A stretch of DNA of 64,000 bases. Source: a virus (taxonomy: Duplodnaviria > Heunggongvirae > Uroviricota > Caudoviricetes). The stretch spans positions 1 through 64,000 of the IMG/VR virus record IMGVR_UViG_3300028591_000080; one strand, written 5' to 3'. This document shows, piece after piece, positions 1,993 through 43,220 of this stretch. Position 1 is the stretch's first letter. The number at the start of each line of letters is the position of its first letter. The notes under the pieces were generated by a model. That model saw only the letters and a program-made list of their open reading frames with translations, made no database searches and was not told the origin of the DNA. The translations under genes were made by a program, and so were the position numbers.

Positions 1993-2000
1993 ATTATACA
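1993..2000 (-). promoter_or_regulatory. Sigma70-type extended -10 (TGTATAAT) for the large ncRNA
   Basis: Sits about 12 nt upstream of the terminal helix. Confidence 0.65.
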
Positions 2001-2106
2001 ATATTTTTTAAATTTTTTCATATAATATAAATAAATTTGGCCGAGACTTAGGTTTTTCCACTTAGCTAGTTCCGAACTTACTAGCACCAAATCATTTTAC
2101 ATTTAT

Positions 2107-2135
2107 ATTATACAATAAATTTTTGATTTTGTAAA
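2107..2135 (-). promoter_or_regulatory. Sigma70-type promoter TTTACA-17-TATAAT with A-tract UP element
   Basis: Exact 17-nt spacing, TG before the -10. Confidence 0.75.
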
Positions 2136-2189
2136 TATATTTTTTAAAAATTTTTTAATTTTTTGAAGTTTTTGATTAACTTCACTACT

Positions 2190-2218
2190 AATATACAACA
2201 AAATCTTAAATTTGTAAA
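2190..2218 (-). promoter_or_regulatory. Second tandem sigma70-type promoter TTTACA-17-TATATT
   Basis: Near-duplicate of 2107-2135. Confidence 0.7.
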
Positions 2219-2245
2219 TACTTTTTTGAAATTTTTTATAATTTT

Positions 2246-2878
2246 TTAATTTCTATCAATTAATTTTGCAGTATTTACCAAAATTTTAGTTAATTGTGGA
2301 CTAATTCCAAATCTCTTAGCATTAGCTTCAATAGACTTTAATAGATTTCCGTCATGTTGTCTTAATGAAGCAGCCTTCCAATCAGCTAACATTTCACAGA
2401 TATCTACTAGATCCATTCCATTAATTCCATCTGGATAATGTTCTGGGTGATGTCTATTAACTGCATAGTGATGTGCTGTTGCTTCACTAATATTTTCTAG
2501 ACTTTGTTTATATTCTTCACTCATTTCACCATTTTCATTTTGAAATTTTAATCTTGCTAACTTTTTAGTGTTCTTAGCAAAAATCTCTACTTCTGGTGAA
2601 ACTAATTTAGATGCATCATGGTCAATACCTCTTTGAGTTAATTCATCAGTAATTAATTTAATATAATATTGTACCATAGCAATATGCTTTCTTGTTTCTT
2701 CATTACATTCTGCAAGTGACATATAATCTTCATCATTTTCATAGCTTTCAACTAAAAGTCTTGTTTTTCCACAACACTCACATTTACTAGGCTCTTCAAA
2801 ATAAATAAAATTTTCCTGTCTTGCTTCTGGGTTAATCTTTTCGAGATAACATCTCTTACAATAACTCATTAGAATCAT
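2246..2878 (-). CDS. DUF5662-like HD-related protein with N-terminal Zn-finger
   Basis: HDASK, HHYAVNRHHPEHY, EMLADW motifs; two CxxC. Confidence 0.7.
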   Translation of the reverse strand: MILMSYCKRCYLEKINPEARQENFIYFEEPSKCECCGKTRLLVESYENDEDYMSLAECNEETRKHIAMVQYYIKLITDELTQRGIDHDASKLVSPEVEIFAKNTKKLARLKFQNENGEMSEEYKQSLENISEATAHHYAVNRHHPEHYPDGINGMDLVDICEMLADWKAASLRQHDGNLLKSIEANAKRFGISPQLTKILVNTAKLIDRN

Positions 2879-2899
2879 CTCCTAACTTTTTATTTGTTC

Positions 2900-2995
2900 T
2901 GGCAGGGGCTGCAGGATTCGAACCCGCACCGGCCGGTTTGGACTCGGCCTTTTACGGTTTTGAAGACCGCTGTGCTCCCATTACACCAAGCCCCT
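2900..2995 (-). tRNA. Opal-decoding tRNA, anticodon UCA (tRNA-Trp-like body, long variable arm)
   Basis: AGGGGCT/AGCCCCT acceptor, G73, CCA; GCGGT-CTTCAAA-ACCGT anticodon arm; 26-nt variable region with GGCCG/CGGCC stem. Confidence 0.93.
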
Positions 2996-3047
2996 AAGAG
3001 AACATAGACAATGTAATAATACAAAGCCTATGTTAAAAATTTAGCAA

Positions 3048-3635
3048 TTATTTTACATCCTTTAGAATGCTTCCAATAGCTCCACCTGGGTGATTATACT
3101 TAAAATCAACTAATGTAATTCCAAGTCTATCGGCTAATTGTAATGCTAAACCTTGAAGTAAAATTAAATAAGTTGAACTTGACGCATTAGGAACAATATT
3201 CCAATTATCTCCTTCATGTTCTAGCTCTAAAGTAAGATTAGTACTTAAAGTCTTATTTAATAAACTGTCCTTATTAAATGTAACAGCTATAGCTCTATCG
3301 CCACGTTGATTTAAATAGTTTGCAAGTAAAATAGATTCTGCAGTATTACCACTCTTTGATAAGACAAAAACTAAATCTTTCTTACCAATATAACCTAAAT
3401 CACCATGCATTGCTGTGTTAGTATGCATAAATACAGCTGGAATACTTAATGAAGTACAAGTACCTACAATCTTTTCACAGATTGGAACATTTTTTCCTAA
3501 TCCTGAAAATACTAGCTTTCCACCATTTTTAATACAGGCTTCCGCTTGATTTAAAATGTCGTTGAAATTCTCTTCAGATAAAGATTCTAAAGATTTTTCA
3601 ATTATAGACATTTGTTCCTTAAAATAATTTAACAT
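3048..3635 (-). CDS. SIS-domain sugar isomerase, KpsF/GutQ (arabinose-5-phosphate isomerase) family, no CBS domains
   Basis: SGLGK, AMHGDLG, LSKSGNTAE, PNASS, HPGGAIG motifs. Confidence 0.85.
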   Translation of the reverse strand: MLNYFKEQMSIIEKSLESLSEENFNDILNQAEACIKNGGKLVFSGLGKNVPICEKIVGTCTSLSIPAVFMHTNTAMHGDLGYIGKKDLVFVLSKSGNTAESILLANYLNQRGDRAIAVTFNKDSLLNKTLSTNLTLELEHEGDNWNIVPNASSSTYLILLQGLALQLADRLGITLVDFKYNHPGGAIGSILKDVK

Positions 3636-3682
3636 AGTTTCACCTCTCTTAACCAGTACAATTTATAATACAAATGAAAAAA

Positions 3683-5395
3683 TTAATTTTCAGATAATAA
3701 ACGTAAGAATAATTCTCTTTGAGATTCTAATTGAACTTTATCAACAGTCTTTTCTTTTCCATCTACTATATAATCTTCATATTCTTTCTTTTCATCTAAT
3801 ACTTCATGAATCTTAGTATCGATAGTTCCAATATTTTCTAAAACTTTTATAAATGCTGGTCTTGTGTTATTTACTCTATAAATTCTATCACAAGACTGAT
3901 CAAAAGAAGAATAAGTCCAAGGAGTATCTAACATAATTAAATACATTGAAGAATTAAATGTTAAGCCAGTACCCATTGCTTGATGTGTACCCATAATTAT
4001 TTTATAATCATCATTTTCTTGAAATAAATTATTATTACGTTGACGCTCGCCTGCGCTTAATTCACCTAAGATTAATAGTGGTTTATATTCTTTTAAAGCT
4101 TCACTTAATGTCTTTATTGGTTGAATAAAATTTGACATTATAACGACTTTTTCACCTTGACTGAGTATTTCTTCAACCAAGTCTAAACAACGCAAAATTT
4201 TTGACGATTTTATGTCATTAGAAGATAAAATAGATGGATCTACAGATGCTTGACGAAGTCTAGTTGTTAGTGCTAATAAATTAGAAGTTTCTAAATTAAT
4301 TAAGTCAACTTGAGTTCCAATTCCATCTACAATTTCATCATAAAATTTCTTATGGTCAGGTTCCATTTCAATATATTCATATTCAATAAATTTACCAGGC
4401 ATATCTGATCTAATTTGAGGTAGAGTTCTTCTTAATGAACAACTTTCTACTTCTTCTCTTAATACATCTAGATTTTGATATCCAACAACTCTATCATCTG
4501 CGTCTTTAACCTCATATTGAGGTCTATAAGTAGTTAAAATTGAATTATCATTCTTAGTAAAGACTAAAGGTAAATAAGCACTAATAGGATTATTTGTAAT
4601 TAAAGTACCAGTAACTCCAACCATATATTCAGAAGATAATTTTAATAAATGAGCACCTTGTTGAGATTTTTTATTATTAGTTCTATGAATCTCATCTACA
4701 ACAATCATTCCAAAATCATTTTTTCCTTTTAATAAAGCTGCAGTTAAGTCTTTTTCTTTATCTTTTCCTTTTTTGCCTCCACCTCTTAATTTTTCAATAT
4801 TAGTAATGACAAAAAATTCATCAATAGGATGCTTTAAAATTTCTACACATTCTTTTACAGAACGATAACTTACTTTACCATTCTTACTAACTTTACGTCC
4901 AAGAATTATACCAGATAAAGAACTATATTTATTGATTTCGTTTAACCAGTTTTCTTTAATTGAATTTACTCCACAAATAATTAAACAATGCTCTATAAGA
5001 CCTCTTTTATAAAGAAGTTCAGCTGCACCAATTATTTCTAGAGTTTTACCTAATCCCATACTGTCTAATAATAACCACTGTTTATGTTTAACATGATAAT
5101 TAAAAGCGTCTACTTGATGTGGAAACGGTTTAAAATTTAATTGTTCTAATTCTTTATGTTTAATTGAATATTTATATTTTTCTTTTTCTAAAATAACAAA
5201 TTTATCATTATTATAATAAAGTTTTAAGTCATCTTCATTTAAAAGTGCAAATAAAAAATTATTAATATTAGTTTGAGAAATAATATTTTCACCTGGTTTA
5301 ATTTCTAAAGAATTATATATTAAATTTTTATTATATTTTAATTCAAAGATTAAATTATTATCTATATCTTTATATTTATAAAATAATTCTATCAT
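3683..5395 (-). CDS. SNF2-family helicase
   Basis: DSMGLGKT, DEIH, TGT, GTGLT, QSCDRIYR. Confidence 0.9.
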   Translation of the reverse strand: MIELFYKYKDIDNNLIFELKYNKNLIYNSLEIKPGENIISQTNINNFLFALLNEDDLKLYYNNDKFVILEKEKYKYSIKHKELEQLNFKPFPHQVDAFNYHVKHKQWLLLDSMGLGKTLEIIGAAELLYKRGLIEHCLIICGVNSIKENWLNEINKYSSLSGIILGRKVSKNGKVSYRSVKECVEILKHPIDEFFVITNIEKLRGGGKKGKDKEKDLTAALLKGKNDFGMIVVDEIHRTNNKKSQQGAHLLKLSSEYMVGVTGTLITNNPISAYLPLVFTKNDNSILTTYRPQYEVKDADDRVVGYQNLDVLREEVESCSLRRTLPQIRSDMPGKFIEYEYIEMEPDHKKFYDEIVDGIGTQVDLINLETSNLLALTTRLRQASVDPSILSSNDIKSSKILRCLDLVEEILSQGEKVVIMSNFIQPIKTLSEALKEYKPLLILGELSAGERQRNNNLFQENDDYKIIMGTHQAMGTGLTFNSSMYLIMLDTPWTYSSFDQSCDRIYRVNNTRPAFIKVLENIGTIDTKIHEVLDEKKEYEDYIVDGKEKTVDKVQLESQRELFLRLLSEN

Positions 5396-6179: not shown

Positions 6180-8429
6180 TTATACGTAATCATTATAAGG
6201 GTCTGTTAATTTTTTACAATTAGTTATAGTAATAAAACCACCATTTATATAATTATAAATGTCTATAGGCGTTCCACCACTACTTGTAATATAGAAAAAT
6301 ATACCACTATTATTTATATCTAAGCATATTCTATAACTAGTACTTAGTGTTTTAAACCATACACTACTCCAGTTATTATAGTCAATAGTAATTGTAAATC
6401 TATCTGATAACGTAACATAGTCAACACCGGCCTCTGGGTGCGTTACTTGTTTAACTCCATATGAGAAACTCTTTACACGGTAAGTTAATGTTCCATCGAT
6501 TTCAATAATATTTCTTCCATAGATATCATCTCAATCTGAAGATGAATCCATACTACTTGTCGCTGGATAATTTATTCTAAATTCACGTAATATACTATTA
6601 ATTCCTACTGATGCAAAATATACATTATATCCATTAGAAGTGCCTTTTCTAAATTCATACATTTTTCCAAATCCTGGATACTTAAAGTATGGTTCATCAT
6701 GGTCAGCTGCTTTAAAAATTTTACCAGTTTTTCAAATACGTAATCCATTATTTATATCTATAAATCCTGTATTTGATACACTTGAAATAACATTTGTATA
6801 AAGTTGAGATTTTACAGTAATGTTTCTAGCACTTAAGCTTGTATTTACTGTTATCTCATCAGCATTAAAATATGGAGTATATAATAAAGTTTTATCGTTA
6901 TTTGTTACTTTTGTTGTTAAAGATGTCCAATTATAATAAGAACAAGAAGATGGATTTTCAACAAGATTTTTTATAAATCTAATTCCATCATATGCCACCA
7001 TTAACGAATTTTCTTCTGGATGATTTAAACCTGTAGCTGATGGACTAGAACTACTATTTTTAATTCGTATAAAATAATTTCCATCAACTTTATTAGTTGT
7101 TAAAGAGTCTGTTTTGACACTGTTTGCTGTTATTACATTTCCTTCTAAAGTATTATTAACTTTAACTTTATTTCCAGTCATTGTAACATTTTGTGGTATA
7201 GTTATTTGACTAGATGATAAAGTAATATATGTATTAGAATTTTGAGCATATAAATATTGAGGTAGCCAAATCTTATTATTAGTTGAAACTAAATTATAAC
7301 CTGTCGCATTTCATGTTGTTGTACATTTCTTTAGTTCGCCATTTTCAAGATAAATTGGTGTATAAGTATTACCAACATTAATACCACTACCTACTTCTTT
7401 AATCATACCATCTTCAACTTTTAATAATTTAACTCCAGAAATATTTATATCATAATTAGTATACGTTTTAGTCTCAGGATTATACACTTTTAATTGTTCT
7501 GCATAAATAGCATGACTTACACCTCTATCAGCATGAGAGATATTAGGTTTTATTTTATGATTATTATCGAAAGATAAATTAATATTAGTTCCATTATCTG
7601 AAACTGTATCAGTATTAATTACGTCATTATTAGTATGATAATTATGAACTGAACTGTCTGCGATTTTATCGGCTGTAACTGCATCATCTTTAATTTTTGC
7701 AGTTGTTATGTTTTGATTTTTAATTTTGTTTGTTGTAACGCTATCAGTAGCAAGTTTTGGTTCAGTTACATTTTCATCTTTAATTTTTTCAGTGATTACA
7801 CTATTAGTGTTTAATTTTTCAGTAGTAACATTTAAGTTTTTAATCTTATCTGTAGTTACAATTGCATTTTCTAGATCGATTTCTTTAATCTTTCCAAATA
7901 ATTTATCTTTATCTTGTCCTAAATCTAAATAATAATAGAAACTTTTATTTGTTGAGCTTTCTAAATCATTTCTAGATGTTAAGATAGCTAAACCATTAAA
8001 AATTGAATCACTACCACTTGTAATATCTAGTATTTCAGTATTAGGATTTTGTATTGTTGATGAAGAAACAAATGGTCTTAAAATTAATGTTTCTTGATCA
8101 TTTCCTAATGAAACAGGTTCCAATTTAATTCCTAACCAGCATGGTTTTAATTTTTGAGTACTAGTATTGAATAATTCTGTAGTTAATTCTTTAATTTTAA
8201 AGTAATATCCATGAATGAAGAATTCAAATGGTTGATTAAGTTTGACATCTTCTGGTTGAGTAATTATAAATGTATCTTTATTAATATATGAAGTTAATTT
8301 TTGGTTAGCTTCGGTATTAATAGAACTTTCTACATTATAAACATAATCTACAGAGTCTTTTGTAAATGTTCCTCTAAATGCTGTAGGATATACATCGATA
8401 TTTCCACTTTTAAAATAACTTATTGCCAT
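6180..8429 (-). CDS. Tail fibre / receptor-binding protein (749 aa, 3 TGA)
   Basis: Track ORFs 7311-8429 and 6732-7181 are in frame; TGA at 7311, 6732, 6531; 10-aa VTxxKI repeats; last gene of the baseplate module. Confidence 0.75.
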
Positions 8430-41105: not shown

Positions 41106-43220
41106 TTATATACAAATTATTCCATTAGAAATTGCTATTGAATTTATAGCATCATCATCTATTGCAGTATCATCTAGGTCTCCATAATATTTTGGATTAC
41201 CATATTCATCAACTTCAATATATTTTTCTTTAGACATTACATTTAATAGATTTTTTCCAAAATCATGTTTTTCAATCTCATTTTGACTTGTATTACTTGG
41301 TTTTGAAATTTGAACAGTTGTTTCAATTGAATCACCAAAATCAAATGAACATTTTTCACCATTTTTACTAGCTGTTCATACTGCACCACAGACTGCATCG
41401 GCTTGGTCCTTAGAACCATATTTACCATTTTCAGGGTGGTTGATGTGTCCATCAGCTTCACGTTCCAATCCTAATAACTCTTCAGTTAATAGTTTAGCTT
41501 TGTCATACATTATGAAACGGCGTTCATAAATTGCTGTTTTAAAATAGTGATAAGGTAAACAAACTTTCTTTTTATTTTCTAGCGATGTTGTTCTATCTAC
41601 TGATAATACTTCTGTTTCAAATCCATCAGCTTTTAATTCTTGTAAAAGAGTAGCAGATTGGTGAGTATCTGATGTAATCATTTTAATATCAAATCCATTA
41701 TCTTTTAACCAATTTATAAATATTCTATGCTTTATTGAACTAATATGTGCGCCTCTAGGATTTTTAATTGAAACTGAGAAAGCTAATTTATAAATTAACA
41801 TCTGAGATTCTACACTAGATTCTTGTAAAATTAATTTTGATAATTGACTAAAATCATTTTCGATCATTTTAGATTTATCGAATGATTCATCTCTACCAGT
41901 TATTCATACGCCTGCAATACCAGTCATGTCTCCAGACTCAGATAAGTCTAAGTGAATAAATAATGGTTTTTCTTTGTCTTTATCACTAACTCTACTTAAA
42001 TCAAAGTATTCTGAATATTGATGTAAATCATCTTCTCCATCTCCAATTTCAAGTATATCATTCAAGAATGGATTTTCATAATCAGTAGTTTTTGTTTTAA
42101 CTAATCTTTCACCTGAAATATATTTTAAAGATGCTGCTGTTGCAATACCAATGATAGAACAAATTGCTTCATCAAGGTTTAATTGGAATGTATCTAAGTA
42201 TCCAATTGGAACTTGTCACATTGTATAATTTTTATTTCTATATTCATCAACTAATTCTGGAGTTGCATCTAATGGTAATAATTCATTAGCAAGAACTTTA
42301 TCTCCAATAGCTACCCAGAATTTTTGAGGTGAATCTTTTCTCGGGTCAACTACCCATTGAGGTTCATCTACAATTAAAGTATTTTTACTTTCATTCTTTT
42401 GTTTATTTTGAATAAATTCTTCTAGGAAAGATTGTTCACTATCTTTTGAAGATGCGATAATATTTAATGTAGGTAAGTAGGTACCACGCATGAAACGTGA
42501 TTTCATACGAGCATCTACTTGAGTAATAATTTTCATCATTCTCTTCTTAGACTTAACTGGGTCTTGAACAAGAGAGAAGTTAACTTCATCTGTAAAGTTA
42601 GCAAACAAAGCACGACCTATGATCTGATTATTACTTGAAGCACAAATAATTTCAATATGTTTATCAGTAACATATCTCATATTAGTTGTACCATGCATTT
42701 CACCATGACTCATAAACCATTCACTAGCTAAAAGCATTGAATTCATTTTATCTAATGCGACACCTCTAGCATTTTCTAATGTAATATTCATCATTGAAAT
42801 ACTTAATTTATCAATACTTTGCATTCCATAATATTGATATGGATCTCTTAAACAAAGTAATCTATATAATAAATATAATAAACAAATAACTGCTATAGTT
42901 GATTTACCTAAACCGATAGCTCCTGTAAATACTATAGTATTATATTTTGTTGAAGTATTAGTTGGAAATATATCTTCTAAACATTTTTCTCAGTATGGGA
43001 ATACTGTAAACTTACCTTCAGCATCATATAATGCATTTCCTAAATATCGTTTGTCATGTAAGAATGTATGAATATCTACTGGAAATTCGTCCCATTCCAT
43101 AGATTGTAATGAATCTAAAAGTTCAGATTTTCCAGTTTTAGAATATTCTTTTAAGATTTGTAAAACGACTTTTTGTTCTTCAGTTGAGAGTTTATTAAAT
43201 TTTTCTTGATCAAAATTCAT
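41106..43220 (-). CDS. terL: Terminase large subunit (704 aa, 4 TGA)
   Basis: FPY(W), Walker A GAIGLGKS, Walker B FTDE, IHLDLSESGD, KDQADAVCGAV(W); TGA at 42990, 42216, 41904, 41376. Confidence 0.92.

Follow-up and report, generated by a model that had tools for sequence, protein, structure and literature searches.

A phage-encoded UGA-decoding tRNA with a second anticodon-type hairpin in its variable region, a possible handle for the host tryptophanyl-tRNA synthetase

How can a phage tRNA that reads UGA be charged with tryptophan when its anticodon is not the one that the synthetase expects, and what is the purpose of the long variable arm that it carries? This question is raised by a tRNA gene in the stretch of DNA analysed here, a window of 64,000 nucleotides. 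The window corresponds to the initial 64 kb of an IMG/VR virus record of 230,252 bp, which is rated 100% complete and has 28% G+C.

The UCA tRNA gene and its surroundings

The tRNA gene is located at positions 2900-2995 on the minus strand and is 96 nt long. ARAGORN assigns the anticodon tca to it, and the Rfam tRNA model (RF00005) matches it from end to end with 57.6 bits and an E value of 8e-10, the surplus bases being placed as an insertion in the variable region. The acceptor stem, AGGGGCT/AGCCCCT, has 7 bp starting with the pair A1:U72 and is followed by the discriminator G73 (position 2903) and an encoded CCA (2900-2902). The D arm has a stem of 4 bp, GUGU/GCAC, and a loop of 7 nt. The decoding anticodon arm (arm 1), at 2954-2970 on the minus strand, reads GCGGU-CUUCAAA-ACCGU with the anticodon UCA at 2961-2963, and the T arm reads GCGGG-UUCGAAU-CCUGC. 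The acceptor/T domain is of the 7/5 type and the D arm belongs to class I. The variable region of 26 nt (2928-2953, minus strand) spells AAAA-GGCCG-AGUCCAAAC-CGGCC-GGU and consists of an AAAA linker, a hairpin designated arm 2 and a GGU linker. All of the features listed in an earlier note on this DNA (the CTTCAAA loop, A1:U72, G73, the 7-bp acceptor and the 26-nt variable region) were found in the sequence, with ARAGORN and Rfam in agreement.

It is important to compare this molecule with canonical bacterial tRNA-Trp(CCA) and with the tRNA-Trp(UCA) of code-4 bacteria. The A1:U72 pair, G73, the Trp-type D arm and the Trp-type anticodon stem are common to all of them, and the UCA anticodon is shared with the Mycoplasma-type decoders. 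Both of these acceptor-end identity pieces for Trp, G73 and A1:U72, are present. However, a canonical tRNA-Trp has a variable loop of 4-5 nt, while the window tRNA has 26 nt with a second hairpin of anticodon type. Arm 1 has U34, and the CCA triplet of the tryptophan anticodon is confined to arm 2. In a BLAST comparison with known phages the 5' half of the tRNA alone aligned, to annotated tRNA-Trp.

The tRNA is found in a run of features on the same strand. In the 5' to 3' direction these are an SNF2 helicase (3683-5395), a SIS-domain protein (3048-3635), the UCA tRNA, a DUF5662 protein (2246-2878), a full-length ROOL RNA (1356-1973; Rfam RF03087, 252 bits) and, downstream of the UCA tRNA and beyond the ROOL RNA, an array of seven tRNAs for Pro, Phe, Phe, Val, Ser-UGA, Asn and Ala (1-913), all on the minus strand. 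The standard code suffices to read all the genes adjoining the UCA tRNA. The tRNA set of the whole 230-kb record has no tRNA-Trp(CCA). The record opens within tRNA-Pro; at its far end (genome positions 228755-229128, minus strand) there is a phage tmRNA with the tag AKSIFNKIANFFRGFGAQRVAALA. The linear form of the record probably reflects a permuted circle or a cut within the RNA module.

A megablast search with 20 kb against known phages gave no match. Gut samples of sheep and other animals (sheep or cattle gut; rumen) are the source of the DNA sequencing runs that contain the window sequence. Six metatranscriptome runs contain 6-29% of the words sampled from window positions 2000-4500.

TGA as a tryptophan codon

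One client gene of the tRNA is the large terminase, a gene of 704 codons at 41106-43220 on the minus strand with in-frame TGA at 42990-42992, 42216-42218, 41904-41906 and 41376-41378. This frame is open under code 4 only, and the PHROG terminase matches span its TGAs. Homologues of the terminase number 1,941, with lengths of about 700 aa among those listed. When 29 of these were aligned with it, the columns of the four TGAs contained W in 29 of 29; W 20, Y 8, C 1; W 16, F 8, Y 5; and W 10, L 11, others 8, where part of the homologue W may itself be TGA rendered as W by convention. Serine is never found in these columns, and cysteine occupies one of the 116 cells. Because of the residues in these four columns, the alignment indicates that TGA in this phage is Trp and not Ser or Sec; the TGA codons do not fall at Sec or Cys positions, and the columns are of Trp or aromatic type.

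The proposal in the earlier note of a phage-encoded UGA decoder with a Trp body is borne out by A1:U72, G73, the Trp-type anticodon stem and the use of TGA as a sense codon in Trp columns. The ambiguity of UGA between Trp and Ser, also put forward there, finds no counterpart in the terminase, where Ser is absent from the TGA columns.

A separate observation concerns the terminase in relatives. Six homologues with lengths of 800-1070 aa contain intein, LAGLIDADG or HNH domains (PF14890, PF14528, PF13392), so the gene has been invaded by inteins in relatives; the copy in this phage is intein-free.

A second client gene codes for a tail-fibre-like protein (6180-8429, minus strand) and has three in-frame TGA. 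Over the long ORFs of the whole genome, about 90 in-frame TGA were counted versus 506 TGG, the former being a rough count that takes in a few true stops between genes in the same frame. TGA is rare at 120-230 kb, common in the structural region and dominant in a block at 104-110 kb, which codes for radical-SAM and sugar-nucleotide enzymes; here radical-SAM and sugar-dehydrogenase domain matches occur in genes with several in-frame TGAs. This radical-SAM/UDP-glucose-dehydrogenase-like block (genome 104214-110305) has 27 TGA versus 5 TGG. In each of two further genes, one for a GIY-YIG homing endonuclease and the other SprT-like (genome 182742-183224 and 206370-207179), there are four TGA and no TGG. 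These TGA-rich genes may have their origin in a code-4 or more fully recoded source. A Pfam search with four large code-4 ORFs gave no match.

Neither the TrpRS/TyrRS family (PF00579) nor the release factor family (PF00472) was found in the phage genome. Since there is no phage TrpRS, the host TrpRS must serve.

The hairpin in the variable region and its relatives

Arm 2, GGCCG-AGUCCAAAC-CGGCC, spans 2931-2949 on the minus strand. In the register of an anticodon arm, it has an A.C mismatch at 31:39 and a 7-nt loop, GUCCAAA, in which U-CCA-AA is the loop of tRNA-Trp(CCA). The triplet CCA, termed here the pseudo-anticodon, is located at 2939-2941.

Related tRNAs were sought in IMG/VR as sequences with the same anticodon arm and T arm and 18-40 free bases between them, the arm itself being unconstrained. 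TCCAAA was found in the free part of 18 of 18 contigs, with a chance expectation of about 0.5% each. The two-hairpin layout is present in 32 other unique tRNAs. Over the whole two-hairpin structure, 95.7% of cells are paired, versus 71.5% after shuffling and 36-48% with the partners slid. Arm 2 is therefore no chance hairpin, because the layout is shared by 32 other tRNAs and its pairing is above that of the shuffles.

The register was examined by anchoring each arm on U-CCA-A as positions 33-37 in 27 unique tRNAs. The pairs 27:43 to 30:40 are standard in 26-27 of the 27, with up to six pair types, and 31:39 is paired in 18 of 27. The sixth and seventh positions outward pair at chance level (12/27). 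Positions U33, C34, C35, A36 and A37 are invariant in all 27, and A38 is kept in 26. The window's arm 2 is a slightly degenerate member of the family, with A.C at 31:39, G at 32 and one more outer pair. In the pair count of a 30-sequence alignment, five of five pairs of the arm 2 helix are altered on both sides, as are five of five in the decoding anticodon-arm helix, which is 98% paired. The search of related phages for arm covariation, proposed in the earlier note, thus gave a stem that covaries and a loop that does not change. By this comparison, arm 2 has the shape of an anticodon arm, with 5 bp and a 7-nt loop N-U-CCA-A-A that displays the cognate anticodon, and both the arm shape and the loop are shown to be under selection.

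A scan of metagenome contigs, separate from the IMG/VR scan, demanded nothing of the arm. The TCCAAA hairpin was found in 42 of 57 unique long arms, with at least 37 distinct stems, and the window's exact arm 2 was found on two of the contigs. About 11-15 of the 57 unique long-arm UCA tRNAs have other arms, and ordinary short-arm UCA tRNAs are present on 46 of 120 contigs. The existence of these other-arm and short-arm tRNAs means that arm 2 is not obligatory. The other-arm UCA tRNAs, for example those with GGUCCGAAAGGGC and CCCUACAACCAGUAGGG between the same anticodon and T arms, form a second class of long-arm opal decoders. A generic scan for CTTCAAA-N20-42-GTTCGAATC returned mostly chance matches and, among the matches listed, one new tRNA, with the loop UCCAAC. 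Among about 185,000 species genomes, real two-armed tRNAs numbered only seven, all of them on MAG or draft contigs from gut-type Bacillota, Bacteroidota, Coriobacteriia and Treponema, so the class is essentially phage-borne.

It is important to compare the UCA tRNAs with phage tRNAs that share their arms but combine a long variable region with the anticodon CCA, which are present on at least 120 contigs. Among the matches listed, the latter have long arms of 13-22 nt, mostly GNRA-capped, and the TCCAAA arm loop is found in none of 73 unique tRNAs. In the dereplicated set of UCA long-arm tRNAs, TCCAAA is present in 23 of 24. This distribution shows that the pseudo-anticodon loop accompanies the non-cognate UCA anticodon specifically. 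The two-armed UCA tRNAs are built on two bodies, one of class-I Trp type, as in the window, and one class-II-like. Within the family, G73 is found in 24 of 24 and A1:U72 in 21 of 24.

In many relatives an ordinary tRNA-Trp(CCA) adjoins the two-armed UCA tRNA. A recent duplication of this neighbour was considered and ruled out, the bodies being 48-68% identical in their 5' part in clean comparisons. A mimic of the 3' CCA end, for pairing with a T-box or RNase P, was also rejected for arm 2. CCA is always preceded by U, where such a mimic would have the discriminator G, and in the Gln and Ile versions described below the arm shows their own anticodons instead.

The same design was found for two other amino acids. 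Phage tRNAs with the anticodon CUA (23 unique, 85-97 nt) have Gln-type bodies and an extra arm with a stem of 3-5 bp and the loop CUCUGAA, UUCUGAG or CUUUGAA, which contain the Gln anticodons CUG/UUG; the scan pattern demanded TYTGA, and no frequency can be derived from this set. A first amber pattern, TTCTAA..TTYTGA..GTTCGAATC, gave 23 matches with no real tRNA, and it was a broader pattern that succeeded. Long tRNA-Ile(UAU) of 91-94 nt have the arm loop CAGAU(U/A)A, containing the Ile anticodon GAU, in five of five unique tRNAs with four different stems. These five come from loci fetched for other reasons, and their arm was not selected for. The anticodon is an identity element for TrpRS, GlnRS and IleRS alike. 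A general device of phages that reassign or exploit codons can be envisaged, in which a tRNA whose decoding anticodon would be rejected receives the stem-loop of the cognate anticodon in its variable region, so that the host synthetase charges the tRNA (UCA/Trp, CUA/Gln, UAU/Ile); we consider this generalization slightly better than evenly balanced.

Long arms of a different kind were observed beside these. Many phages have whole tRNA sets of class-II shape, including Trp(CCA), Asn, Lys, His, Met, Cys, Thr, Arg and Pro, with tRNAs of 80-94 nt, a class-II-like D arm and a long arm capped by GAAA, GTAA or GCAA. No description of such whole phage sets was found in the literature.

The proposed role of arm 2

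We propose that the UCA tRNA is the opal decoder of a jumbo phage recoded from TGA stop to Trp, and that arm 2 is a pseudo-anticodon which preserves recognition by the host TrpRS. On the present comparative evidence we favour this role for arm 2 with moderate confidence. As the first step, UGA would be read on the ribosome by arm 1 through UCA. As the second, the acceptor end would present the bacterial Trp marks A1:U72 and G73. The identity elements for Trp are the anticodon CCA, G73 and the 1:72 pair (PMC9976931), and the change of C34 to U would strip part of the anticodon element used by TrpRS. The phage, moreover, supplies no TrpRS, and the second hairpin with CCA might be explained in this way. 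As the third step, the host TrpRS would bind the CCA of arm 2 of a tRNA that it would otherwise accept poorly, and charging with Trp in this manner may be good enough to compete with RF2. The first two steps (decoding by arm 1 and the Trp marks of the acceptor) rest on direct sequence and homology evidence. TrpRS as the reader of arm 2 is suggested by the conservation of the hairpin, its association with non-cognate anticodons and the three parallel systems. The use of such an arm has a precedent, since an engineered pseudo-anticodon in the variable arm increased charging in E. coli (PMC7590224).

Two ways for TrpRS to reach the triplet may be considered. The enzyme could make direct contact with arm 2, or arm 2 could take the place of arm 1 in stacking under the D stem during charging. 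Both TrpRS and its paralogue TyrRS bind the tRNA across the dimer from the side of the variable arm, so direct contact is conceivable. Some points stand against reading by TrpRS. The tip of a variable arm is not at the anticodon's place in the L shape, the arm in the window is degenerate, and some UCA tRNAs have another long arm or none. TrpRS carriage was found in one of three complete short-arm phages versus none of six two-armed phages, numbers that are too small for a contrast. One IMG/VR contig, 223 kb long, has a UCA tRNA of the short-arm type about 6 kb from a TrpRS-family gene of 335 aa, a layout that corresponds to the 'code-change module' described for Jade phages.

Arm 2 could instead be a handle or decoy for a partner other than TrpRS, such as an anticodon-loop modification enzyme, a phage protein or a distracted host anticodon nuclease. 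MiaA, for example, acts on loops with A36-A37-A38, and the conserved motif exceeds the triplet, with U33 and A37-A38 also kept; long arms are, in addition, common in phage tRNAs. However, the loop tracks the amino-acid identity in three systems (CCA with UCA, CUG/UUG with CUA, and GAU with UAU), which a synthetase fits directly, unlike a single nuclease or modification enzyme. The loop is also missing where the true anticodon is already cognate, as in the 73 CCA tRNAs among the matches listed. A partner of this kind is regarded as unlikely.

In another arrangement the two hairpins would exchange roles and both work on the ribosome, arm 1 reading UGA and arm 2 reading UGG, so that the arm would serve decoding and not a synthetase. 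Arm 2 has the exact size of an anticodon arm (5 bp and 7 nt, with U33 and A37), its 3' linker GGU or GGGU could act as a short variable loop if arm 2 were placed under the D stem, the phage lacks a tRNA-Trp(CCA), and the same amino acid would be inserted by either head. However, UCA already reads UGG through wobble, an ordinary tRNA-Trp(CCA) is the neighbour in many relatives, and the stems of the Gln version have only 3-5 bp. Position 32 of tRNAs is nearly always a pyrimidine; in arm 2 it is G in 15 of 27 and 31:39 is mismatched in 9 of 27, which would be odd for a decoding loop. For these last two reasons arm 2 is probably not a decoding head, and the exchange of roles is rather improbable.

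The earlier note read the long arm together with G73 as the signature of SerRS or Sec, so that UGA would be Ser, Sec or ambiguous. G73 and a long paired arm are indeed features that SerRS uses (PMC7609411, PMC7590224), and the ARAGORN label is SeC; however, this label derives from the anticodon alone. The window tRNA is like tRNA-Sec and the allo-tRNAs (PMC5389517, PMC7609411) in its UCA anticodon, G73 and long variable arm. It differs from them in having a 7/5 domain, a 4-bp D stem and a Trp anticodon loop, versus 8/5 in tRNA-Sec or 8/4 or 9/3 in allo-tRNAs, with a long D stem. In particular, tRNA-Sec has a D stem of 6 bp with a 4-nt loop, compared with 4 bp and 7 nt here. The phage's own tRNA-Ser(UGA), at 490-582, has a class-II D arm and a variable stem with one unpaired nucleotide on each side, unlike the class-I D arm and the 4-nt and 3-nt linkers of the UCA tRNA. 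A long arm is no mark of Ser or Sec in phages, because many isotypes carry long GNRA-capped arms. The terminase columns (W, Y, F and L, with no S and a single C) point in the same direction. Recruitment of SerRS or of the Sec pathway is therefore very doubtful; where the earlier note let the arm recruit another synthetase, the conserved CCA loop points to TrpRS. The other roles raised there, an advantage over RF2 or a shield from host tRNases, would be conceivable for the arm. Of the chimeric opal decoder proposed there, the phage UGA decoder with a Trp identity set is retained, while the Ser/Sec half is not supported by the 7/5 domain, the D arm and the linkers.

Least probable of all is a functionless relic, left by a tandem duplication that copied the anticodon arm; in many relatives the surroundings of the loop are similar in arm 2 and arm 1 (GGU-CUxCAAA-ACC), but the stem of arm 2 has been rewritten repeatedly with compensatory changes while six loop bases stayed fixed on at least two tRNA bodies.

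Relation to known systems and significance

The reading of arm 2 as a handle for host TrpRS can be placed beside several known systems. Recoded phages with suppressor tRNAs were described by Borges et al. (bioRxiv 10.1101/2021.08.26.457843), who stated the charging by host synthetases to be an open matter. The present phage is similar to theirs in its phage-encoded UCA tRNA, AT-rich genome, gut source and in-frame TGA in structural genes, as well as in its reliance on host machinery and in having some genes that can be read under the standard code. It differs in that no long arm or pseudo-anticodon is described for those suppressors. In a 2025 preprint, 213 phage suppressor tRNAs were screened, and such arms are not mentioned.

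No natural tRNA with a pseudo-anticodon arm was found in the literature, the engineered case being that of Mukai 2020 (PMC7590224). There, too, a suppressor tRNA received a copy of the cognate anticodon arm in its variable arm as an aid to the synthetase; however, the constructs were synthetic, used allo-tRNA (9/3) scaffolds with HisRS as the enzyme, and were tested with an additional anticodon-binding domain fused on. The window tRNA is natural, has a 7/5 Trp body and is presumed to be served by an unmodified host enzyme. 

A mimic of an anticodon arm is also known outside tRNA. In the thrS operator of E. coli, a hairpin in the mRNA imitates the anticodon arm, is read by the cognate synthetase and represses translation. 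In the phage, the mimic is inside a tRNA and would promote charging.

Phages with code 4 and code 15 are probably under-annotated, because tRNA finders label such genes SeC, Pyl or 'undetermined'. If the proposed role is true, arm 2 would represent a new kind of natural identity element in tRNA, moved from the anticodon into the variable arm, and the first such case. The natural arm would be the counterpart of a design devised in synthetic biology (Mukai 2020), and two-armed tRNAs would be ready-made scaffolds for stop-codon suppression and genetic-code expansion. It would also answer how recoded phages have their suppressor tRNAs charged without a synthetase of their own.
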